From the NCBI GenBank assembly GCA_045837725.1, contig JBEWZL010000012.1, positions 1 to 64,000 of the forward strand: DNA of 64,000 nucleotides, given 5' to 3'. The notes beneath the pieces were generated by a model. It saw only the letters and a program-made list of their open reading frames with translations, was not told the origin of the DNA and did not search any database. Shown here piece by piece: positions 42,785 through 64,000 of the stretch; position 1 is the first letter of the stretch, and every line of letters begins with the position of its first letter. This stretch comes from Vermamoeba vermiformis (lineage: Eukaryota). A program made the position numbers and the translations under genes.

Positions 42785-45700
42785 TTACAACACGAGCACA
42801 TCCTCGTGATCTTCGTCGTACTCACGCGAAGAGTCATCCTCGTCGTGCTCGCTCGAGTGTTCTTCGTGCTTCTTGTGCTCATCGGGACTCTCATCTTCGT
42901 CCTCGCTGTGCTCGTGCGAGTGACTCTCTGGCGTGTCTGCGCCGTGTTCGTGCCGCTCTTCTTCGCTCACCGAGTGTTCGTCCACGTGGTCTTCGTGGTG
43001 CTCAGCGCCAGCATCAGCGTGCTCGTCGTGTGGATCTTCAGCGAGGTCTGGCTGCACATCTTTCTCCCCTTCTTGCGCGAGGAGCAGTTCATCGAGCTTG
43101 TCTTGAATGTCACTCACATTGCTCTTCATGGCAGCTTCAATCTCAGCCACGGACGGATTCACCAGGGCTCGCGCTTCATCGTCCAGTTCGCGCATGACCA
43201 GAGAGTTCTGACGCTCCACGACACGCACGTGCTCTTCTTCGCTGTCATCGTCATCGTCCACGGGCAGATCACCAATGGGTTCATCAGCCTCGTCTTCGCT
43301 GTTCTCCACAGACAGGGGACGGCTCGGAGGACGCAGCGGTGACACGTCAGTGCTCGGCTCAGCTTTGTCGTCAGTGCGTGGTGTGCGCGGACTGGGCTCT
43401 CTGGGTGTAGTCTCGCGCGGTGTGGGCTCTCTGGGTGTAGTCTCGCGCGGACTGGGCTCGCGAGAGGTGTGCGGACTCGTGTCAGTTTTGACATGCTGCG
43501 TCGTGTCAGGGCTCGGAACTTCGGCAGGCTCCACTTTGACATCTTCAGTGCGCGGCGTTCTCGGACTCAACTGCCGCGGCGTGGGCTCACGTGACTTGTT
43601 GGCCGTGTCTTGCACCACCACAGCAGGGTTCTCGTGCGGCGTGACGGGCTTGTCATCTTTGGGACTCTTGTCGCGCGGTGTTTTGGTCTTCTTGGTGCGC
43701 GGTGACTTGGTGCGCTCCTCAGTGCCCTTGTTGAGCACACTGGTAGCAATGGACAGAATAGGCACGACACCCGGGGTGGCATTGACGTCGACCTGGCCCA
43801 TGTTCTTGATGGCTTCGAGTCTCTCGCGCTCCAAGTCACTCTGCCGCGTCTCAAAGCTGGTCTTGGCGGGCTTGTCGCGCTTGCCACTCAGTCGCTTGTC
43901 CTTCTTGTCTTTCTTATCACGTGCCGTCAAATTGCCTTTTCTGTCCGTGGCAGCTTTGGCCAGCTCACTGGCCTTGGCGGTGACTTGTTTGGTCTTGCGC
44001 GCGCTCTTGCGCTTCTCTTTCTTCTTCTCCACGGCGTTGTCTTCGCTCTTGCGCGCCACACTCTCGGGCTTGGGCTCGTCGCTCGGAGCACTGCTCTGCA
44101 CGAACTCGCGCAAGTTGGCTGCACGGCGTGATTGGCGCTGCAGCAGTGTGCGGCGTGAGCTGTCATCACCCTCGCTGAACACATCTTCGAGCGAGCCCTT
44201 GCTGCTCTTGGACCCGGCACGACGGCGCGGCAGTTGTTCGCTGGCTGGTCGCTCCACACTGCTCGTGCTCTGCGTGTCACTCTCGATCGAGGACGGGGCG
44301 GCGAGTACTGCGGAACTCTTTTGACTGCGCGGTGCACGACGCTTTGGTGGTGGCATCGAGTTGACAGGTGTCAAAGTGGCACGATCTGACAGCACAGTCA
44401 ACAACGAGCTGAAGTGCGTGGCAGCTGTGGGCTCCGTGGTCACGAGTTGTGCGATGTCAGTGGGGGGCACGGCACCGTCCTAATTAGGCAGTTAGTTGTT
44501 GGAATGCCCAAATATGGCAATTCTTACCTTGACACTGCCGTTGACTTTAAGTGCGGCAATGATTCTTTCCAAACTGGGACTGGTGAGCGCGTTGTCGTCC
44601 CATTGAATGTTCTAAAAATAGATGTGAGTAAGTGCTATATTTAGCCCGCCAATCACTTGCCTTCAAGGTCGCGTTGGTCTGAATGGCGCGTGCCAGTGCA
44701 AATACACCGCGATTGCCTAATTTGTGGCCCTTGATGTTCAGCTCTTCCAGGCGCGAATTGTGCGCTAAAGATAGCAGCACAGGTCCGAGCTCGTGCTTCA
44801 ACTGCTGACTCGAACGAGGACCACCCGCAATGCTCAACTTCTTCAATTTCACTGAACACGCGGTGAGTGCGAGCTAAAAATAGAACACGGTGGTACGTAC
44901 ACTGCGAGGCCAAGATGAGTGCAGAGAGTTGTTTGACCAATAGGGAGCGTTCTTTCTGATTCTTGAACTTGAAATTTCCATCGAGCACGAGCGTCTCTAG
45001 CGTGACGGGATTGATGTCCAAACTCGTCAGGGCCGCGCACAGTGCCCCCACACCTTCATCGCCGAACTCGTTGTCGCGCAGATTCAACTCGGTCACGCCG
45101 CGCATCTGGCGCAGTTGATGGGCTGTACGCGGTGTGAGTACTTGCCTAATATGGCAATGCGGGGTGACTTACCAATAGCCGCAGCACCAGTGGGTCCAAA
45201 GTTGTTCTCGGCAGCCTCAATGGCAATCGAGCCCAAGTAGCTGTTGCTGTGCACGGTGCTCAACAGCTCGACCAGGGCCTCGGCACTCATGCCAGTACCA
45301 TTTAAGGCAATGCGCTTCAGTGAATCATTGCCCTGCAACAGTCGCACCAGGGCTGGTCGCACCTTGTCCGTGAATCTATTTCTAGACACATCGAGCTCGG
45401 TCAGTCGCAAACAGCCGCGCTGCACTGCTGGCACCACGAGCGGCAAGTGCGCCTGTGTGTTGACGAGCTTGACCGTGCGCAGCTTGAAGTTGGGCAGCGC
45501 GAGCCACTGCGACATGACGCCCGAGCCCTCCTGATCGAGTCGATTGTCGGAGATGTTCAGATAGGTCAAGTGATCGAGCAGGGGCGCGCACTTCTTGAAG
45601 CAGTTGAACAGCGTGGCCAGCCCGCGACTGCTCAGATTGGTGTTGGTCAGATCGATGTGCTCCACATTCACTGAATCACCGCACCGTTCAATGAACGAGG

Positions 45701-49243: not shown

Positions 49244-50386
49244 TCACATGGGTGCGAGAGGATTGTGCGAGGGTCCAGCAGCATTCATTTCTGCTTTGGG
49301 CTTGTTCTTGAACGTCAAAAACAACTGCAATCGTTGACACGTTAGTCATTGCCTAATATGGTAATCATCGTGTACGTACCTGAAACGACTTCTTCTCTTT
49401 GTCCCACGAGGTCCAGAACTTGCTCTTGGCGCGGTCAGGGTCAATGTACCGTTCAATTTCGTAATTGGGAATTTTGAATGCAATTGTCTCGTAGGGCTCA
49501 GCAGCGAACAGGATGTATTGATAGCGACGATCAGGGGCCTCTTTCTTCTGTTCAAATGTCGACATGAAGCGATGACGTGGCTGAAATCCCTCTTCAATCT
49601 CGGGGTAATCAATCTGAAACAGCAGACTCAGCGCATTGCTCTCGGCATCGCGCTGCTTCGTGACGCTGAAACCTGGACGACCAATCTTCACTGTGCGCTT
49701 GGGCTGCACGACACCGACCTTCTTGGTGACACTGAGCGAGGGCCCGGCCACTGCTGGACCTGCGCCCCCGTCTGTCATGCGCTGATCACGTGCTGCTCGG
49801 CGCGCCAAGTTCATTTGATGGCGCTTGCCCTGTCACACATATGACGTGAGTACTGCGTGGTTATATAGAAGGGGGGTGCGTACCTGTGTGTGTGCGAGGT
49901 ATGAGCCTTCATTCGTGTGCAGCGTGAGACACAGCTTGCACTCGTACGTGCCCAAGTGGTTCTTCATAAAGTACGGATCCTGCATGCAAAGAGTAAGATC
50001 GTAGCTCTTGTAGTGGCACATTAGTGAGGGTAATGATGTACGTACCTTGGATAAGTCAATGGTCTCCAAAGCTAATTGACGCAATCGTTCGCGACGATCG
50101 ACATTGCTATCACTGCCTGATGCAACTCCTGCTGAGCCGGGCTTGCTACCAAAGTCCCTATAATACCAAGGGTCAATATTTACTCTTTTAATATGAATTT
50201 TCATCGCAACCACAACGATCCAAGGAAACTGCTAGCAGATTTTATTTATTAATTTGTTTTGAACCAAGGAAAATACTAATTATTTACAAAAATTACTAAG
50301 ACATATTAAATAATATTGGCACGATAGATAACAATTTATTATTTAATGAGAATTATCGCTTAATTTGATAATACTTACTTGGACAT
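49244..50386 (-). CDS. SF3A2: Splicing factor 3A subunit 2 (SAP62/Prp11); multi-exon with an 8-nt first coding exon
   Basis: DRRERLRQLALETIDL.KDPYFMKNHLG.YECKLCLTLHTNEGSYLAHTQ, KIGRPG, and QYILFAAEPYETIAFKIP. Confidence 0.95.
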
Positions 50387-52824: not shown

Positions 52825-54789
52825 ATGGGTCAAGGCAGCTCCACTCGTAATAGCGACGACATCGTCAGATGGGCGCACAAGAAGCAACAACTCGACAAGC
52901 AAGAGGCTTTACGTCGTTCTAATCGCGACAACTTAATCATGATAGACCCTGATGCAGTCACTTTTGAAGACGACTCTGAAGACACGCGCATGCCTGTCGA
53001 TCCTGAAGGTTTCAAGCAGATGTTGAGGAAAATGGGCATTAAATTTGTTGAAGAGGACAAGTACGTTGCATAGCATTCATAGCATTCATACCATTTCAAA
53101 TCATATCTTACTAAACGCTCTATTTAGTGCACCACCTTTCAATGCAGATGCTGTGGTCAAAATCAATTCCACGTTGCAACAGCCCGACTACACGTTGCCC
53201 TGGCAGACATTGGACGTCGCTGAAGCACGAGGTATGTAGTGGAGTGATTGGCATGATCATGTATCTAAGTCATTGTCAAAAGGTTCTGGTGCTGTCATTG
53301 AAGGCGGATTTGTTTTGACTGCTGCTCACGTGATCGCTGACTGGACCTTCGTAAGAGTGCAATGATACTGAATATATATTAGCAGTATTAACACCATTCA
53401 CAGCTCGAAATTCAACGCGGCAATGACAAGTGTCCCGCCAAGTAAGTTACACCACAATTCCTCGTGAAATACTTGCAAAGACTAATCACGTGCGCAGAGT
53501 GGTCGGAGTGTGCAATGACAGTGACCTCGCACTGCTCAAGCCCACAGACGAGAACTTCTTCAAAGACATCCAGCCGCTCAAGATTGGTCCCATGCCGCCT
53601 CTCCGTCACCGCATCTACGTGGCTGGTTTTCCGATTGGTGGCGAGGAAATTTCCGTGACTGAGGGTGTCGTGTCGCGCATTGAAATTCAGCCGTACAGCC
53701 ATTCACTGAAGCAATTGTTAGCGATTACTGTCGATGCTGCCATCAACAGCGGAAATTCTGGCGGTCCAGTGATGAACCAGCACGGTGAACTCATCGGTAA
53801 TTGCCTAATTTGGAAAACAATACCTTGTCACGTGCTGACTGTCGCATTCAGGCATTGCATTCCAAGCCCTGGAAGGAGCCGAGAACATTGGTCACATCGT
53901 GCCCCCGCCAGTGATCAATCACTTCTTGGCGGGCATTCAGAAGTTCGGCAAAGACTACCGCGGATTTCCTGATTTGGGCTTGGCCGTGCAGACCCTCGAA
54001 AACGCCAATCAACGCGCGTTGTTGGGACTGCCGCACGAACTGACCGGCGTGCTGGTGGTGCGCGTGCACTACAACAACAGCTGCACCAACGTCCTGCGCA
54101 CGGGCGATGTGTTGCTGAAGATTGGCGAGCACGTGATTGCCAACAACGGCATGATCACCTTCGACACCAAGCTGCACGGAGATTTCACGCTCGCTGTGCA
54201 CCAGTACCAAGAAGGTGACACCGTCAAGTGCGAAATATTCCGCGAGGGCAAGGTGCAAAGTGTCGATGTGACGCTCAAGTACCCGCACGACCTCGTGGCC
54301 AGTCACCGTTACAACGAGCAGCCCGAGTACTACATCTATTGCGGCCTCTTGTTCCAGCCCCTCTCCGTGGATCTGCTCGAGGCCCACTTCTCGGGGGGTC
54401 TCTTGTCGGCCCCGCAAGAACTGCTCTATCTCAGCACGCAGGACGAGACTGCTGAGCGCGCGGAGATTGTCGTGTTGACACGTGTCTTCAAGGACGACGT
54501 CAACTTTGGATACGAGGCCCTGCAGTTCAGCGTGATTCGCTCGCTCAACGGCACACCCATTCGCAGCGTGGCTGATTTGACACGTGTCATTGAGAGCACC
54601 GAGAGCGAGTTCTTGGTGTTGAAAGCATCGAACGACGCCACGATTGTGTTGCCGGGTGCTAAGAACAAACTCGCGACCAAGGCCAACAAACGCATTGGCA
54701 AGCGCTATGGCATCAAATACGACCGCTCAGCGCTGCTCGTGCAAGAACAGAACAGCGATCCTGCGCCCTCGGAGGCTGAGAACAAATAA
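52825..54789 (+). CDS. Deg/HtrA trypsin-like serine protease with PDZ domains (plant DEG2/9-like); multi-exon
   Basis: AVVKI..PDYTLPWQ, LTAAHV, DSDLALL, GFPIGGEEISVTEGVVSRIE, DAAINSGNSGGP, and YYIYCGLLFQPLS. Confidence 0.93.
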
Positions 54790-56429: not shown

Positions 56430-59400
56430 CTACTGCTTGGTGAGCAAGTGAATCAGCTTGTTGATCGCATCGATCCACTCATCGCACTCCTCTTTGGTGT
56501 CAGCAGCAACGGTGTAGATGCGCTCAGGTGTTTTGAGTTCAAATGCGTAGTACTGATGGGTCTTGAGGGTGCGCGGAGTGCTGGGCTGCACAAAGGGACA
56601 CAGCGAGAGGTGAATCACCGCATCGGGCTTGGACTTCTTGGGCTTGAAGTACTTGAGACTGCCGTTCTCGAGCACAAACTTGTACTTCTTGTACTCTTTC
56701 TTGCGATAGCGGTACAGCGTGCCTTGTTTGTTCATCGCAGCCACGAGACTGGTGTTCACCTCTCTGTCGCGGTGTTCAATCTCCGACTTGGACTTGACTG
56801 ACGAGCTGCTGCCCGTGCTGTTCACGCGCTTGATGTCTTTCTTCGAGCGCTGTTTGCGCGGTGACTTGTCGCGGTGTTCAGTGCTCGGGGTGGTCGGGGT
56901 GCTGGGCGGCTCTTCAGCAGCGCGGATCTCTTCTTCGTACTTGAAGCTGATCCACTTCCAGCGCGCTTCAACTCCGTCCTTGGCATTGGGCGGTGTCAGA
57001 CCAGCCACGCGCTGCTTGTACTTGTCTTTGTGACGCGCGTTGTTGACCTGTTTGCAGGCAGTGACGTCATCAGCGGACCACGTGTTGGGCTTGTCGAGGG
57101 CGCGCAGTCTGTTGAGTGCTTTGAAGGTCTGATGACTCTGTGCACAGTCGCTGCAGATCCAGGCCTGCACCGCGAGGGACATGTGCGTGGTCTCTTTGCC
57201 GCACTCGACGCACACTTGATTGTCACCGCGTCGACTCTCTTGCACGGCTGCAAATGTGCTGTCCTTGTCCTTGGCCTCGCGCTGCTTGAAGTCGTACAGG
57301 AACAGATAGACTGACTTGCGAATAGCGTTGATCCACTGCAACTTCTCGTCGAGATTGTTCGCGGACAAGAAGTAGATCCGCTCGCGCGTCAAGAGCTGGA
57401 AGCTGAAGGGTCGATCGACAATGCCCAGCGCACGCGCAGTGCAACTGAGCACGTGAACGGAGCCCGAGGGTTCAATGACATTCGGCACCTCGACTGTGAT
57501 GCCCTCGTCCTTGATCACCGTCACATCGACCTTCTGCTCGCTCTCTGCGCGCAAGAGATAGTCGTGCACGGTCTGCGGCGAGGTGTTGACGACAGTCGTG
57601 GCCGAGTGCGTGACAGCACTGACAGCATTGATCAGCGAGTCCACCACCACTGCTGCAGACTTGTCTTGAGCAGGGTAGTAGTTGAGAATGCAGCCGTTCA
57701 GCACAAAGTGTTTGCACTTCCACTCATCGTGCTTGCCTTTTTTGTACAAATCGCCCTCCATGAAGACCTTGCCGTTCATGAACGCGAGCGATTTCTTCTC
57801 CTCTTCTTCGCGTCGCTGCGTGGTGTCAAACAGACGTGAGCGCATGGCCTCGAGCTGCAGTGAGATGGAGTCGTCGAGATCGCTCAGCCAGTCGTACTTG
57901 TCTTGACTCGTTGTCGCGGCTAAGATCACCGTGCGACGTTCTGCCACGGAGGCAGGGAGCGGACTGTCACTGCCGCGACCAGGGCCAGGACTCGAGGGCG
58001 CAGTGATGGCATTGGCCATGGACATATCACCGAGCGAATTGGACTTGGCGCGACTGCCGTTCATGGCCACGAGACTCTGCGCGGCAATCACTGCGGGCCC
58101 GACTTGCGTGACAATGTTGGGCATGTCAGAGCCCTGGATCTGGAACAGATTGGCGTATTTGATGGACTGCTGGTCGTTGATGTTGTGCAGCTCAGCTTGT
58201 TTGAGGGGCACAATGTACAAGAACTTGAAGTCCACATCGCTCTGCTTGAGCTCGTCCATGGTGTACGCGCTGGGATGTGCGCCACTCTTGGAGGCCTTGC
58301 GCGCACTGCTGGCACTCTTCTCTTTGGTGACGACGATAATGTCCGTGAACAAGAAGCAGTAGCGCATCTTGGCACGCACCTTGCTGGCATCGAAGGTGGC
58401 AGGGGAGCTCATGCCGTCAATCTCCAATAAGCGCCCTTGACGCACGTAACGGCGATGCGGCACTGCAAAGTTGTAGTTGGGATCGAGACCCGACAGCTTG
58501 CCCCAGATGAGCAGCGTGTTGTTCAAGTTCTCGGCCTCGCGCTTCTTTTCATTCACGTATTCAGCGACGGACTGCATCTTCTCGAGTGCTTTCTTCAAGT
58601 TCTGATAGTCTGCGTGACTCTCGGGTGTGTTTTTGAACAGATCTTGCAGCAACAGCACGTAGCGAGGGATGCGCTGCACGGGCAAGATGAGGAACGAGCT
58701 GATTTCGAGGTTCTCGCACTCGGGACGTGCGCGACACTGCATCAACAGCTCGAGCACTTGCGGCTTCTTCATGACATTGAACAGCGTCGAGCACGCCGTG
58801 TTGTAATTGTTCACGTAGGCAGTGTACACCTTGAGGTACTCGGTCATGGCCAAGAAGATGTCGCCCAACTTCTGTCCCGACGAGTACCACTTCTCCATGC
58901 GTGCTTTGAGCTGCTTCAAGATCTCGGAATTGTACAAGCGAATCACCTCGCTCTCGGAGAAGATGCTGCGCAACATGGCCGGCGAGACGAGTTCTGCGGG
59001 CAGCTTGGAGAGTGCATCGAGATAGACGGACTTGAGCACCTCCAATCGACGCACGTACACCTCCTCTGTGCTGATAATTTCGCGTGCGATTTCATTGCGT
59101 TTGAAGCGTGATTTCATCTTTCTGCGCTGCAATCTGCCGCGCACGAGTGCTTGAATGCGCACCAGGCCCTTGTATGCGCTGCTCTCGGTGTGCGTGAAGG
59201 ACTGCAGCACCGCGTCCAAGCGCGTCATCATGCGTCGATACTTGACTTGCGCGAGATATCTGCGAATGAGACTCTGCGCCATGACAATTGCACTCTCCGA
59301 CAGTGCAGGGGTGCTGCGGTGCACGGCGAGAGGACTCGTGCCCGTGGTTGGACTGCTCGCGGGCAGAGGTTCGCGCTTCACGAGCGGTCGTTCGTCGCGC

Positions 59401-60181
59401 AGTGTGGGCTTGGCGATTGCGCTGTCAGTGGCTGAAGTCGCGAGACTCTGTGCCTTGCCTGCACTCGGCATGGAGGTCACCGAGGCAGTGCGTTGAAATG
59501 GATCTGGTGGTCTCTTCCACACGCGGTTGTGTGGCATGCCGTCTGATTCCGCACTCGCTGCTGGTTCTGCTGCTGGTTCAGGATTCTTTGTCTTGTTAAT
59601 CAACAAAAATATCAAGCCCATGACTTGTTTCTTGTTTCCCTCCATAATATCTGCAAGCAAAATAATTGTGTGAGTCGTGAAATTTAAATTGAATTGACCA
59701 ACAATTAAATCGGCATTATTTTGATAATAATTTCATTTGCTAGACTGTCACTTTTTAAGTTAAGTATGAATTAACTGGACTAATATTGTATATAAAAAAA
59801 TCTTTCTTACCATTCGCGTTAACCGAAAACAAATTCACGCTCCAATGACGCTCAATAAAGCGAATTCCCGTCATAATGTTATCTACCTTTTGACTAGGGA
59901 ACTTAGGGTTGGGATTGTAGCGGCCAACCTTCTGGCCGGTCAAAATTTCTAATAGCTGAATCAGAACTACTCCATCTCGAAAGTCGGTTGCAAAATCAGA
60001 CACAGTTCGATTTTTGACAGCTAAGTGTCGATTGGCCCATGTCAAAAATGACTGATACAACGAGAATTAATAAGATTTGTAATGAAAATCTTTTTTCTAC
60101 CTGATTCTGGATGTCTCCCCAATCGGTACTGAGCGAGTGGACGGCTAAGTCCCCACTAGACTGACTGGGCTGTTGCGTCAT
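56430..60181 (-). CDS. GxcDD-like RacGEF: CH + 2 IQ + DH + PH + PH + ArfGAP-like + PH; 3 exons
   Basis: CH (FLTWANRHL..DFRDGVVLIQLLEIL), IQALVRG, REIISTEEVYV..LILPVQRIPRYVLLL, PH motifs, CVECG..CSDC, and a C-terminal PH. This matches the known Dictyostelium GxcDD architecture. Confidence 0.88.
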
Positions 60182-60444
60182 GGTATCTCGACTTTGTTGA
60201 AAAAGAAAATCTCGCAAGCCGAAAAGAAATCTCCGTGATCAACAGAGAACTCACACGATTGGTCGATTTATTTTATCAAATTTAACGAACATATTTTATT
60301 GCTTCGTTTCGTGGCCTTTGTTTTTTCCTCTTATCTCGGAATTGAGCTACAGTACGTACCTTCCGCGATGACCAATATTAATATTCTAACGATGTTTTAT
60401 TATTAGTCTTTACCGTTACTTAGAGTAAAACAAAACTCTTTAAG

Positions 60445-61428
60445 ATGTCACAAATTCCCGACGCTCTCGCCCTCACTCAAGAGGATGCTCGTATGATGCT
60501 TGCTTGCAACGTCCACATTGGTTCTACCAACTTGGACTCTGCTATGGAGCGATACATCTGGAAGAAATCCTCCTACGTTAGAGAGAAGGAACGCGAAGGT
60601 AAAAATGGGAATAATTAAATAAATAATAATATAGCAAAAGTAATTTAAATTACGCCAATAACACTATTGTTATAATTTTTTAAGTTGTGGATCTTCGATC
60701 GTGGAGTTGATATTAATTGTATAAAATATTAATTTTTTATTGCAGGTGCTTACATTATTGACATTCGCAAGACCTGGGAAAAGATCGTCTTGGCTGCCCG
60801 CGCCATCGTCGCCATTGAGAACCCCCTCGACATTGCCGTCGTTACCGTCCAAGGTACTGGCGAGCCCCTCGCTCAACGCGCTGTGTTGAAGTTCTCTCAA
60901 TACACCGGTGCTGCTCACTACGCTGGTCGCTTCACTCCCGGTACCTTCACTAACCAGATCCAAAAGCAATTCGCCGAGCCTCGCTTGTTGATCGTTGCTG
61001 ACCCCTTGAAGGACCACCAACCCATCATTGAAGCCTCTTACGTCAACATCCCCGTCATTGGTTTCTGCAACACCGACTCCTCGCTCCGTCACGTCGACAT
61101 TGCCATTCCTTGCAACAACAAGTCCCGCTTCTCCGTTGCTTTGACCTTCTGGCTCTTGGCCCGTGAAGTCTTGCGCCTCCGTGGCACCATCTCCCGCTCT
61201 GAACCTTGGGACGTGATGGTCGACTTGTTCTTGATGCGCTCTGCTGCTGAACAAGAGAAGGCTCAATCTCAAGCCCAAGCCCAACAACAAGTTCAATCTA
61301 CTCAACAAGCCAGCTACGACGAGTTCATCGCCAAGGGTACCACCACTGGTCAAGGTATCGTCGGTGCCAGCACTAACTGGGCTGATACCCACGAGGATGC
61401 TGATGAGCCCCCCGCTGACTACGAATAA
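60445..61428 (+). CDS. RPSA: 40S ribosomal protein SA (uS2); 2 coding exons
   Basis: [45 protein letters not shown], and [17 protein letters not shown]; strong ribosomal-type codon bias. Confidence 0.97.
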
Positions 61429-61560
61429 GAGCCCTCTTCTAGCGAATTAAAATAATAAAAAAACCTTAAAAAGTACCCTTTTCACTTGATATGAGGTCCA
61501 AAGAAATTGTAATTAATAATGCAAATGTATTTACAGCAAACAAATGTACACAACAAGTCT

Positions 61561-64000
61561 TTACAAGCCCACGATGTTTTGCACCGCTCTGGCCAGTTGC
61601 GCAATGTTCAAATCGGCGGAAGAACTCAGCGCGTGCAGCACTGACGCGTCCAAGAATGTTGGCAAAGCTTGGCGCGTGAGATCGTAGCGCAACAGATCGT
61701 GAATGCACGCGAGAGATTGCACCACGACTGCCGCATTGTGATGTGCCAGCAGTGCGCTGAGTGGTGGCAAGCCCTGATCGATTACAGACTGCAAATGAGT
61801 GCTGTCCAAGGTCGATTGCACCAATCGCAGCACGTGAAGGATGCGGAGCTGGAGCTGAATGTCATCTGCGAGGGCGAGGGTCTTGAAGCAGTGCGTGGTG
61901 AGATCACGTGACATGAGTTCCGCGCGTGCCCTGGTGGAGAACAACATGTTGCCGAGCAGCATCACCGCGTTGTGCACGATCTGCAAATCACTGTTCTCTT
62001 CGCTGTCCATGTACTCCATAGACACGTGTGCCAGCATGCTGTCCAACACTGTCACGTGATTGGTCACAATGAACTCGCGGTTCTGTTCAGCGAGCGTGAG
62101 GTGCATCAGTGCCAACAGGACACTCTCGCGCAATAGACTGCTCAGCCGTGCGGTCTGACTGCTGTCGTGCTGCACACTCGCTGCGAGCTGGTCGAGGTCA
62201 CTGAGCAGCGTCACCAGGGCGCGCAAGACACCTGTCACGCGCATGTCATCCTTAGCTGTCTTGCACAGTGACAACCAACCAATCAGCTGCACGCTGTAGA
62301 TGACATCTGCCAGGGACAGGGCACTGCGGTCCACGTGCTCGGTGTGATATCCGTCGTCGGGGAGTGTTCCTAATATGGTCAACACCGTGCGCAGTGCGGG
62401 CATGACATCTTGCAGCAGAATCAAGTCGCGCACGTGATTGGCGGTCTGAGCGAGGGTGAGCAGCATGAGCAGCGTGGTCTGACGTATACCAGGGCCGTGC
62501 TCTGGATCACAAGCACGTGACAGCGACTTATTTAGCAAGAGCACGAGACTCTTGGTGAGAGTGGCGAGGTGATCGGCATCGATCTGTTGTGTCACGTGAT
62601 GCGGATTGTTCATGAGCACGCGGTACATGATCTGCAACACGGCTGTCAAATCGCTGTCCAACAGTGGTTGATTGGTCACGTGATCGCTCAAAAACAGATT
62701 TTGAAATCCCGCCAAATCGAGCAGGGTCGTGATGGCATTGCTCTGCTGTGAGAACGCATCGAGTCCGATCTGCGTGCGTGCCACGGCTAATAATAGCTGC
62801 ATGCCACTCGTCTTGATGCTGTCTACCAGGGCTTGTTGTGCCTCCGTGTCACTCGGGCCTGAACTTTGCACTTGTTGCGTCATGTCGAACATCACGGGAT
62901 TGGTGCTATTTTTGGGAGTGAACAGCGCGGCATCTTTCGTCACGTGACGACGCGAGGCGAGCACGGTGAGCAAGAGATCGACCAATCCGTGCTGCGCGAG
63001 CACTACGAGCACGTGATCGGTGTCAGCGAGCGATTGACACGCGCGAATGACATTGTACTGCAGCTGCAACAGACGCGTGTCATTCGGGGCACTCTGCGCG
63101 GCACGGTGCGACAGTCCCAGCACGGCAATCAAGTACTGCAAAGATTGCGCTGCCACCAGTCGGGGCCACAGTCCGCGATGCTGGCACAGCTGCACGATCA
63201 CGCGGCAACCGTTGTAAACACCCGCGAGATCTCCCTCGCTGCCCTGGTGTGTGAATCCAGTCAGGCCACTCACCAGGGCATCGAACTGCACGCGGGACAG
63301 CTGTCGTTCGTCGCGCACGTGCTCCACGATGTTTCCCAGCAAAAATGTGGCAAAGTCACGTGTCTGCTTGTCCGATGAGCCGAGCAGATTGATGACACGT
63401 GTCAAACTCGGATCACTGGCGAGCAGGCTGTCGACACGTGATCGATCGCCCGAATTGGTGCTGGTGATCAGTTCGCGCAGTGCCAGCAAGCGCCCTTCGC
63501 GGTGTTCAGATGCCAGCACGGCTATTAATAGCTCCACGCCACCCTGTGCCACCACACTCGACCACGTGCGCGGATCTTGCAAGCTGGCTGCTGTCACTGC
63601 TGCCACTAACTTGCCTAATAAGGCAGGGGACAACTCGTGCTCGACGATGAGTGTTACCAAAATAGGCAGTAGATCGCGTGATTGATCAGGGCTGGACTGC
63701 AAAGATAGCAGCAAGTCTACCGTGGCTTCAATTGGGGGAAGTTTTTCCGCAGGTGGTTGTGCCGAGGCTAAAAATAGCGACAGATTGCGTTTCAAGCTCG
63801 CGATGAGGTCCGGTGACTCGACCAGGGCAGCACGTGACTGCGGGTGTTGCTTCACCATGGTGGACAGCACGTGCACCAGGGCCAGTGCTTTTTTCATTTC
63901 CATTTTAGGATCAGTCACGTGCTCGTCGCCCTGGTTGAGCATGTTGCAGAGTGCCAGCACGCCACCCATGTTGAACCACGTGACAGCAACGCTCGCATCG
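61561..64000 (-). CDS. Armadillo/HEAT-repeat protein, 5' end beyond the window
   Basis: Open frame >800 aa running off the window end; Leu-rich helical repeats (GGVELLIAVL, GLVDLLLTVL, GVLRALVTLL, GLPPLSALL). Confidence 0.8.
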   Translation of the reverse strand, partial: DASVAVTWFNMGGVLALCNMLNQGDEHVTDPKMEMKKALALVHVLSTMVKQHPQSRAALVESPDLIASLKRNLSLFLASAQPPAEKLPPIEATVDLLLSLQSSPDQSRDLLPILVTLIVEHELSPALLGKLVAAVTAASLQDPRTWSSVVAQGGVELLIAVLASEHREGRLLALRELITSTNSGDRSRVDSLLASDPSLTRVINLLGSSDKQTRDFATFLLGNIVEHVRDERQLSRVQFDALVSGLTGFTHQGSEGDLAGVYNGCRVIVQLCQHRGLWPRLVAAQSLQYLIAVLGLSHRAAQSAPNDTRLLQLQYNVIRACQSLADTDHVLVVLAQHGLVDLLLTVLASRRHVTKDAALFTPKNSTNPVMFDMTQQVQSSGPSDTEAQQALVDSIKTSGMQLLLAVARTQIGLDAFSQQSNAITTLLDLAGFQNLFLSDHVTNQPLLDSDLTAVLQIMYRVLMNNPHHVTQQIDADHLATLTKSLVLLLNKSLSRACDPEHGPGIRQTTLLMLLTLAQTANHVRDLILLQDVMPALRTVLTILGTLPDDGYHTEHVDRSALSLADVIYSVQLIGWLSLCKTAKDDMRVTGVLRALVTLLSDLDQLAASVQHDSSQTARLSSLLRESVLLALMHLTLAEQNREFIVTNHVTVLDSMLAHVSMEYMDSEENSDLQIVHNAVMLLGNMLFSTRARAELMSRDLTTHCFKTLALADDIQLQLRILHVLRLVQSTLDSTHLQSVIDQGLPPLSALLAHHNAAVVVQSLACIHDLLRYDLTRQALPTFLDASVLHALSSSADLNIAQLARAVQNIVGL

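Follow-up and report, generated by a model that had tools for sequence, protein, structure and literature searches.

An array of SRF- and MEF2-type DNA motifs in the micro-introns and exons of a RhoGEF/CARMIL-like gene of Vermamoeba vermiformis

Related systems

The sequences CC(A/T)6GG and CTA(A/T)4TAG are the consensus sites of the SRF type (CArG boxes) and the MEF2 type, respectively (PMC6165875; this and the other papers named here are cited from excerpts), and a dense array of such 10-mers is present between positions 44479 and 49361 of a 64,000 bp stretch of the Vermamoeba vermiformis genome (contig JBEWZL010000012.1, positions 1 to 64,000; "the window"), where it runs through the introns and exons of a predicted RhoGEF/CARMIL-like gene (gene A). 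Both types of MADS gene occur far outside animals, and Dictyostelium has four MADS genes (PMC3640940). SRF is described as a master regulator of actin-cytoskeleton genes (PMC4819857), and the host gene here is a RhoGEF/CARMIL-like actin regulator; in addition, the 10-mer CCATATTAGG, which is the gene-strand form of the sites in gene A intron 13 and in an intron of the neighboring SF3A2 gene, is the sequence of an SRF-specific probe (PMC3511420). The pattern is that of SRF sites, but its deployment differs: the putative sites occupy 12 of 16 micro-introns as well as exons, MEF2-type sites stand among them, and the two types interconvert between species. In known SRF targets, by comparison, a promoter or a large intron holds a single CArG box or a few of them. 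The MEF2/Rlm1-type sites likewise share the CTA(A/T)4TAG pattern (PMC6165875) but here form an array across a gene body, in which five sites double as splice acceptors. The 10 bp cores agree in full with both the SRF/Mcm1-type and the MEF2/Rlm1-type definitions.

Three other kinds of sequence arrangement invite comparison. Homotypic and heterotypic clusters of transcription factor sites that undergo turnover (PMC4621482) likewise exceed chance, and their site count holds steady although individual sites are lost, gained or shifted; unlike enhancer clusters, however, the array here lies within a transcribed and coding region, has about one site per 80–120 bp over 2–5 kb, and uses tiny introns as carriers. 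With introner elements, too, a single gene can hold numerous short introns that are alike in length and have a sequence module in common, but the introns here are old and co-positioned in a relative, conservation is confined to the motif, and neither terminal repeats nor target duplications were seen. Duons are exonic transcription factor sites that constrain codon choice, and the motifs of a second marked gene in the window (gene B, described below) likewise shape both codon choice and amino acid order; the duon effect in human exons is statistical and genome-wide, whereas the site density and the strongly disfavored codons of gene B are far more extreme. Literature searches, far from exhaustive, covered TGACACGTGTCA, one of the palindromes that accompany the array, and motifs conserved within the short introns that compact genomes have. 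The first returned only two virology papers, whose titles and abstracts did not include introns or gene-body motifs, and the second returned nothing on this architecture, which may still be published.

Enrichment of the motifs

The gene that carries the array is the following.

42785–48569, minus strand: RhoGEF/CARMIL-like gene (gene A), predicted; 17 exons, 16 introns of 47–59 nt, coding sequence 4980 nt

Expected motif counts were taken from 100 dinucleotide-preserving shuffles of the window. CCW6GG occurs 15 times in the window against a shuffle mean of 2.64 (maximum 9) and CTAW4TAG 16 times against a mean of 0.71 (maximum 3), and none of the 100 shuffles reached either count. Eight exact CCW6GG and 12 exact CTAW4TAG sequences lie in the 44479–49361 span, and the general pattern C[CT]W6[AG]G ("MADS-like" below) has 22 matches there and 48 in the whole window. 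Two further motif classes were followed alongside it, the E-box RTCACGTGAY and the TGACA-SS-TGTCA palindrome (TGACASSTGTCA); the co-occurrence of the MADS-like sites with CACGTG and TGACANNTGTCA, which the original prediction from the sequence had pointed out, is real.

Sixteen of the 22 matches in the span are intronic and four exonic, all 20 of these lying inside gene A, and the remaining two are in the upstream spacer (49171) and in the last intron of SF3A2 (49352). The intronic matches are distributed over 12 of the 16 introns, 11 of them in mid-intron and five with their TAG serving as the splice acceptor. This agrees with the earlier statement that some sites double as acceptors while many are mid-intron or exonic; the 49352 site, which the original prediction implied to be in gene A, belongs to SF3A2. 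All 22 coordinates given in the original prediction are correct, and every CCW6GG and all 12 CTAW4TAG sites that it listed are present; it overlooked the exonic CArG at 45298, and of its three hybrids those at 47670 (CTAAATTAGG) and 47699 (CCAAATATAG) are hybrids indeed, whereas the sequence at 46036 (CTAAAAATAA) is a one-mismatch near-miss. TGACA-NN-TGTCA is present in introns 2, 4, 6, and 10, and intron 1 is the sole intron without a palindrome.

The disappearance of the enrichment once splice-acceptor overlap and local composition were modeled had been set as a refuting test. When each intron was trimmed by 6 nt at its start and 10 nt at its end, 549 nt of intron interior remained, which contain 11 C[CT]W6[AG]G matches against a mean of 0.111 (maximum 3) in 5000 dinucleotide shuffles, none of which reached 11. 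Neither overlap with acceptors nor local composition therefore accounts for the enrichment. As a second control, 28 intron candidates were collected elsewhere in the window by a consensus scan (mean GC 0.40, against 0.44 in the gene A introns). None has a mid-intron or an acceptor match, compared with mid-intron matches in 11 of the 16 gene A introns (Fisher p = 5.7e-07 for mid-intron and 4.0e-03 for acceptor matches). The exons of gene A are also enriched, with four MADS-like sites against 0.27 under synonymous shuffling (reached in 0 of 1000 shuffles) and 11 CACGTG against 3.53, an effect weaker than in gene B. The motifs cluster beyond chance and local composition, as expected of a cis-regulatory cluster, and chance or composition as their source is excluded by the shuffle and control-intron tests together with the ortholog comparison that follows.

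Conservation and turnover in an ortholog

An ortholog of gene A was found with the leucine-rich repeat (LRR) exon as query in three metagenome contigs (L001–L003; 91–95% protein identity), which come from one genome, are identical where they overlap and align to 47874–43069 of the window at ~81% nucleotide identity. The sites of the span are listed here with their state in that alignment; site strand is given as "." throughout.

44479–44488: CCTAATTAGG, intron 16 3′ end; TAG is the acceptor, last G exonic; ortholog identical
44508–44517: CCAAATATGG, mid-intron 16; absent in ortholog
44612–44621: CTAAAAATAG, intron 15 3′ end, acceptor; lost in ortholog
44635–44644: CTATATTTAG, mid-intron 15; CC..GG type CCATAAATGG (gene strand) in same columns of ortholog
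44874–44883: CTAAAAATAG, mid-intron 14, 5 nt upstream of ACTCAC; shifted by 7 columns in ortholog, as CCATATTTGG
45145–45154: CCTAATATGG, mid-intron 13; core of the 16-mer TTGCC-W6-GGCAA; ortholog has TGACACGTGTCA instead
45298–45307: CCATTTAAGG, exon 13; ortholog keeps hybrid CTTTAAATGG
45749–45758: CTATATTTAG, mid-intron 12; ortholog identical
46036–46045: CTAAAAATAA, one-mismatch near-miss, intron 11 3′ end; ortholog has full CTATTTTTAG
46321–46330: CTATTAATAG, exon 10, codes for P-I-N-R; ortholog identical
46492–46501: CTATTTATAG, mid-intron 9; absent in ortholog
46727–46736: CTATTTATAG, mid-intron 8, abuts CTAAC; ortholog identical
46936–46945: CTAAAAATAG, mid-intron 7 (GC-AG); hybrid CCATATTTAG in same columns of ortholog
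47076–47085: CTATAAATAG, intron 6 3′ end, acceptor; pattern kept in ortholog
47205–47214: CTAAATATAG, intron 5 3′ end, acceptor; pattern kept in ortholog
47226–47235: CCTAATTTGG, mid-intron 5, TTACC-W6-GGCAA on the gene strand; ortholog identical
47440–47449: CCAAAATAGG, exon 5; ortholog identical
47590–47599: CTATTTATAG, mid-intron 4, 5 nt upstream of ACTAAC; ortholog has CTAAAAATAG from same column
47670–47679: CTAAATTAGG hybrid, intron 3 3′ end, acceptor; 16-mer extends 3 nt into exon; ortholog identical
47699–47708: CCAAATATAG hybrid, mid-intron 3; CCTTTTATGG in same columns of ortholog
48260–48269: CCAAATAAGG, exon 2; outside the ortholog contigs
49171–49180: GGCTAAAAATAGC, spacer ~600 bp upstream of the gene A ATG, on the 3′ side of SF3A2
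49352–49361: CCTAATATGG, SF3A2 last intron, ~800 bp upstream of the gene A ATG
48055–48066: TGACACGTGTCA, intron 2
47559 (intron 4), 47113 (intron 6), 46274 (intron 10), 44362 (exon 17): TGACA-SS-TGTCA; in ortholog the copies at 47559 and 44362 are retained, that at 46274 is retained in part, and that at 47113 is lost

Exons are 83.7% identical to the ortholog, whereas the non-motif parts of the intron interiors are only 51.4% identical (198 of 385 positions, 44 gaps). From the retention of base classes at such background intron positions, C[CT]W6[AG]G is expected to survive in place with a probability of 0.010 per site, yet the pattern is found in the same columns at 10 of the 16 intronic sites (binomial 8e-17). 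For the mid-intron sites the scripted count is 6 of 11 (5e-10), which becomes 7 of 11 when intron 4 is corrected, where MAFFT had placed a gap inside an CTAAAAATAG that starts in the same column; one more, in intron 14, is shifted by 7 columns. All three exonic sites covered by the ortholog are kept, one of them as a hybrid.

What is kept is the pattern. On the gene strand, the window and ortholog sequences are CTATATTTGG and CCTTTTATGG in intron 3, CTATTTTTAG and CCATATTTAG (a hybrid) in intron 7, CTATTTTTAG and CCATATTTGG in intron 14, and CTAAATATAG and CCATAAATGG in intron 15, and in the last two both half-sites switch together. The W bases vary between the species, and CTA..TAG is exchanged for CCA..TGG at the same site, with hybrids as intermediates. 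In intron 13 the exchange goes further and the CArG of the window is replaced by TGACACGTGTCA at the same place in the ortholog. Five MADS-like and six CACGTG sites in the aligned gene region are present only in the ortholog, and the window in turn has sites that the ortholog lacks; the CACGTG and TGACANNTGTCA sites turn over too. Constraint on the sites above that on the neighboring sequence, combined with turnover, is what a cis-regulatory module would display. It is the pattern that is under purifying selection, and not the letters, and the gains, losses and retention together resemble stabilizing selection on a cluster of binding sites.

Nature of the signal

Positions outside the search pattern were examined by folding the sites into half-sites (40 CC-type half-sites from 20 sites and 50 CTA-type half-sites). 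In the CC type, 23 of 40 half-sites have T at −3, 27 of 40 have T at −2, and no more than two of 40 have C at −1, giving TT-D-CC..GG-H-AA, and in the CTA type G or T occupies −1 in 43 of 50, giving K-CTA..TAG-M. These biases fit the extended Mcm1/SRF dyad, TT-N-CC..GG-N-AA, and the preference for G/T at −1 and C/A at +1 in the array fits the MEF2 matrices. The mid-intron sites have A-rich or T-rich cores without bias toward either on the transcribed strand. An A/T-interchangeable core, the lack of strand bias, the joint switching of half-sites and the flank bias together point to double-stranded DNA read by a dimeric protein, and the 10-mers behave as one selected family with MADS-like degeneracy.

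Palindromic 10-mers in introns could also be read as RNA hairpins. This was rejected, as the mean folding z is −0.38 over 17 introns, with none below −2.2; the flanks beyond 3–4 bp are not complementary at most sites. Similarly, the sequences ACTCAC and ACTTAC were considered as antisense splice signals (antisense GTGAGT) and rejected, since they are branch-point boxes whose place is taken by ACTAAC in other introns. The mean distance between sites is 122 bp in gene A and 79 bp in gene B, and the nucleosome-scale periodicity proposed in the original prediction did not materialize: neither at that scale nor at any other did spacing depart from random placement, the fraction of null placements reaching the observed maximum being 0.62 for gene A and 0.99 for gene B.

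Other marked and unmarked genes in the window

CACGTG density is 0–1 per kb up to 42 kb and rises to 10 per kb in parts of 42–64 kb, the E-boxes in the dense stretches being flanked as R-T-CACGTG-A-Y, and every marked gene is located in its right-hand third. Besides gene A, the genes concerned are these.

53442–53497 and 53789–53844, plus strand: introns of gene C, an HtrA/Nma111-like protease (PDZ_3, PDZ_2), which carry a CArG and E-boxes
56433–59732, minus strand: gene D, IQ-RhoGEF-PH-ArfGAP-PH, intronless, 1100 aa, GC 0.55, third-position GC (GC3) 0.73
60407–61434, plus strand: 40S ribosomal protein SA gene (RPSA), with a GT-AG intron of 147 nt (60597–60743)
61564–63999, minus strand: gene B, an intronless 812-aa open reading frame with weak ARM/HEAT matches ("rotatin-like" is an Atlas lead only)

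Gene B has no introns, and its 28 sites are contained in 2.4 kb of coding sequence: eight MADS-like against 0.41 and 20 CACGTG against 8.57 under synonymous shuffling, neither count being reached in 1000 shuffles. The codons inside its MADS-like motifs account for seven of the eight TTA, three of the seven CTA and two of the three ATA codons of the gene. His-Val dipeptides number 12 against 2.76 expected, and all 12 are coded by CACGTG, the other eight CACGTG being in the other two frames. In this gene selection at the DNA level evidently bends both the protein and the choice of codons. In gene C, one intron has a CArG (53804) and a CACGTG beside the branch point, and the other has a CACGTG just before the acceptor.

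Gene D, a second RhoGEF gene of like composition, contains no MADS-like site and two CACGTG, as chance predicts, and thus constitutes a natural negative control between the marked genes. RPSA, with RNA depths of 600–1000× in three runs, has neither an E-box nor a MADS-like site; many opposite-strand RNA joints at RPSA look like artefacts of high-depth libraries. An SRF-actin logic, as first suggested for gene A, may not apply: the same motifs are present in gene B and in the introns of the HtrA/Nma111-like gene, and the second RhoGEF gene (D) has none.

Possible functions

The sites are demonstrated, as are their enrichment, their restriction to certain genes and their conservation amid turnover, and they depend on neither splice signals nor RNA structure; from this we infer the kind of protein that binds and the effect of its binding. 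The explanation we favor, to which we give about even chances, is an intragenic cis-regulatory module, the likeliest role of which would be transcriptional control of its host gene. The 10-mers would be DNA-level sites for one or more dimeric MADS-type factors, with the SRF/Mcm1-like CC-W6-GG and MEF2/Rlm1-like CTA-W4-TAG forms read as one family, C[C/T]W6[A/G]G, and together with the RTCACGTGAY E-boxes and TGACA-SS-TGTCA palindromes they would make up a heterotypic cluster of ~35 sites that starts ~0.8 kb before the start codon and spans the gene A body. Selection would keep the total of sites steady even as individual ones disappear, arise, move or change type. Most sites would lie in the 47–59 nt introns because a GC-rich, tightly packed gene leaves almost no other DNA free of constraint, and in marked genes without introns the sites would go into codons. 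The module would set the timing of gene A transcription.

If the sites are bound, this would be an unusually clean case of regulatory DNA packed into 50-nt introns and coding sequence, with selection on a degenerate protein-binding pattern visible against the drift of the intron around it. The case would also offer a reason for the retention of tiny introns in compact genomes, show how far selection on binding sites bends codon usage and protein sequence, and extend the link between SRF/MEF2 and the cytoskeleton to an unusual architecture.

Several observations sit uneasily with such a module. About 20 MADS-type sites plus E-boxes over a 5 kb gene body, and the 28 sites in the 2.4 kb of gene B coding sequence, are far denser than ordinary enhancers and could point to a function different from transcriptional activation. 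The interchange of CArG and TGACACGTGTCA in intron 13 is odd if their factors have distinct inputs. At seven mid-intron sites of the window, the distance to an ACTNAC-type branch box downstream is exactly 5 nt, which hints at splicing, although this spacing is not kept in the ortholog. Finally, the RNA runs at hand (X21–X23) are from another strain, 95–99% alike, and cover gene A at ~0.1–1×, so the intron model rests mainly on reading frame and on the ortholog.

The tentative alternative that the array marks chromatin or a class of genes is kept alive by how densely the sites lie, by their extension into coding sequence and by the exchange of one site type for another. In this view abundant general factors (Mcm1-like, Cbf1-like) would bind the palindromes and keep the chromatin state of chosen genes. 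In yeasts Cbf1 and Mcm1 are general regulatory factors, and Mcm1 binds near replication origins. Variants of the idea are a barrier, nucleosome-free points, a replication origin or membership in a chromosomal domain, for any of which any dimer site would suffice. It would account for three unrelated motif classes that co-cluster and replace one another, for arrays that fill entire gene bodies including coding sequence, for the restriction of dense stretches to the part of the window from 42 kb on, and for carriers without an evident functional relation (a RhoGEF/CARMIL-like gene, gene B and an HtrA/Nma111-like protease gene). The non-periodic spacing of sites in genes A and B does not favor it, however, and since gene D and RPSA lie between marked genes and are without sites, the array is no simple domain mark. 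In a more specific and equally tentative form, interchangeable dimer palindromes, about one per 100 bp through the bodies of chosen genes, might act as a unit. Micro-introns would then be retained largely as carriers of DNA-binding sites, the rare TTA/CTA codons and the His-Val dipeptides would result from forced codon placement, and the array would be, for example, a chromatin-opening or gene-class mark, unlike ordinary enhancer inputs.

It seems unlikely that the sites belong to a dimeric factor outside the MADS family, for example a lineage-specific one, that has the C-Y-W6-R-G pattern by coincidence. Three introns do have the flanks CATTGCC..GGCAATG, which extend past the SRF consensus, but the canonical MADS classes, the hybrids and the flank preferences occur together here, and one known family explains them economically.

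That the 10-mers act in RNA, as intronic enhancers or as an extended branch-point/acceptor signal of very short introns, we consider improbable. Five matches do supply the acceptor TAG and a sixth is the near-miss at 46036, several mid-intron matches in the window lie 0–5 nt upstream of ACTNAC/CTAAC, and most in-gene matches (16 of 20) are intronic, all of which would suit a splicing role. A splice signal would, however, have a fixed position and be present in introns generally, and this motif has neither property: its distance from the branch box has changed in the ortholog, where one site has moved by 7 nt, and as none of the 28 other intron candidates has it, the spliceosome of this organism needs no such motif. 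The interchange of A and T and the lack of strand bias are unlike RNA recognition, there is no excess of RNA structure in the 17 introns folded, and selection acts on these motifs outside introns as well, in the exons of gene A and throughout gene B, which has coding sequence only.

Least credible, and rejected here, is an origin of the introns as mobile elements (introner-like elements or miniature inverted-repeat transposable elements whose palindromic ends or cores survive in each copy), for although intron size is uniform (47–50 nt for most), a 22-nt core of intron 5 recurs in the SF3A2 intron with 21 of 22 positions alike and TGACACGTGTCAAACAG recurs at intron 3′ ends, all 14 introns covered by the ortholog are co-positioned in a species ~19% diverged and the introns are therefore old, they share nothing beyond the motif and splice signals, and the conserved part is the motifs, which are also exonic, and not the rest of the intron.

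Gene model and minor features

The exons of gene A were chained automatically and then curated by splice consensus and reading frame, and the curated chain is a single open frame of 4980 nt from 48569 to 42785. The predicted product has an IQ-like N-terminus, a RhoGEF (DH) domain, a PH domain, a CARMIL-like LRR region and an extended tail of low complexity. In Pfam the RhoGEF domain is matched in two parts (E 1.8e-21 and 4.4e-26) and LRRs are matched as well, and the best solved-structure matches of the LRR exon are both LRRC16A/CARMIL1 (4k17_A, E 5.9e-13, and 9ec0_A, E 9.2e-12), so that the LRR domain is of the CARMIL type. The open reading frame piece at 46290–46730, considered as a CARMIL PH region, has no Pfam match at E ≤ 0.01.

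The introns are nearly uniform in size, and the 14 covered by the ortholog are at identical positions there, with indels that are not multiples of three. Two are GC-AG introns (minus strand), 44660–44612 (intron 15, GCAAGT) and 46959–46911 (intron 7, GCACGT); in the ortholog intron 15 is GT-AG and intron 7 is GC-AG. Five reads of X23 join 47205 to 47254 with one letter between (a net removal of 47 nt), which fits intron 5, and four reads of X22 join 49325 to 49383 with two letters between (a net removal of 55 nt), which corresponds to the intron of the next gene upstream.

49365–50231, minus strand: SF3A2, the next gene upstream of gene A (Pfam search)
49379–49325, minus strand: SF3A2 last intron, ~800 bp upstream of the gene A ATG (RNA joint)

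The longer word TGACAC(G/C)TGTCAAACAG recurs at 29028, 47554–47570 (minus strand), 47108–47124 (minus strand), and 11958, and in intron 4 and in the plus-strand intron candidate at 28988–29044 it forms the 3′ end of the intron with a CAG acceptor. The TGACACGTGTCA copies at 48055 and 63393 are joined (48066/63389) by two RNA reads of X22 and ten of X23 with 38 foreign letters between; these reads probably stem from a third locus that has the same palindrome and flanks. The window also contains a bZIP (bZIP_1/bZIP_Maf) transcription factor gene at 36960–38036 on the plus strand.

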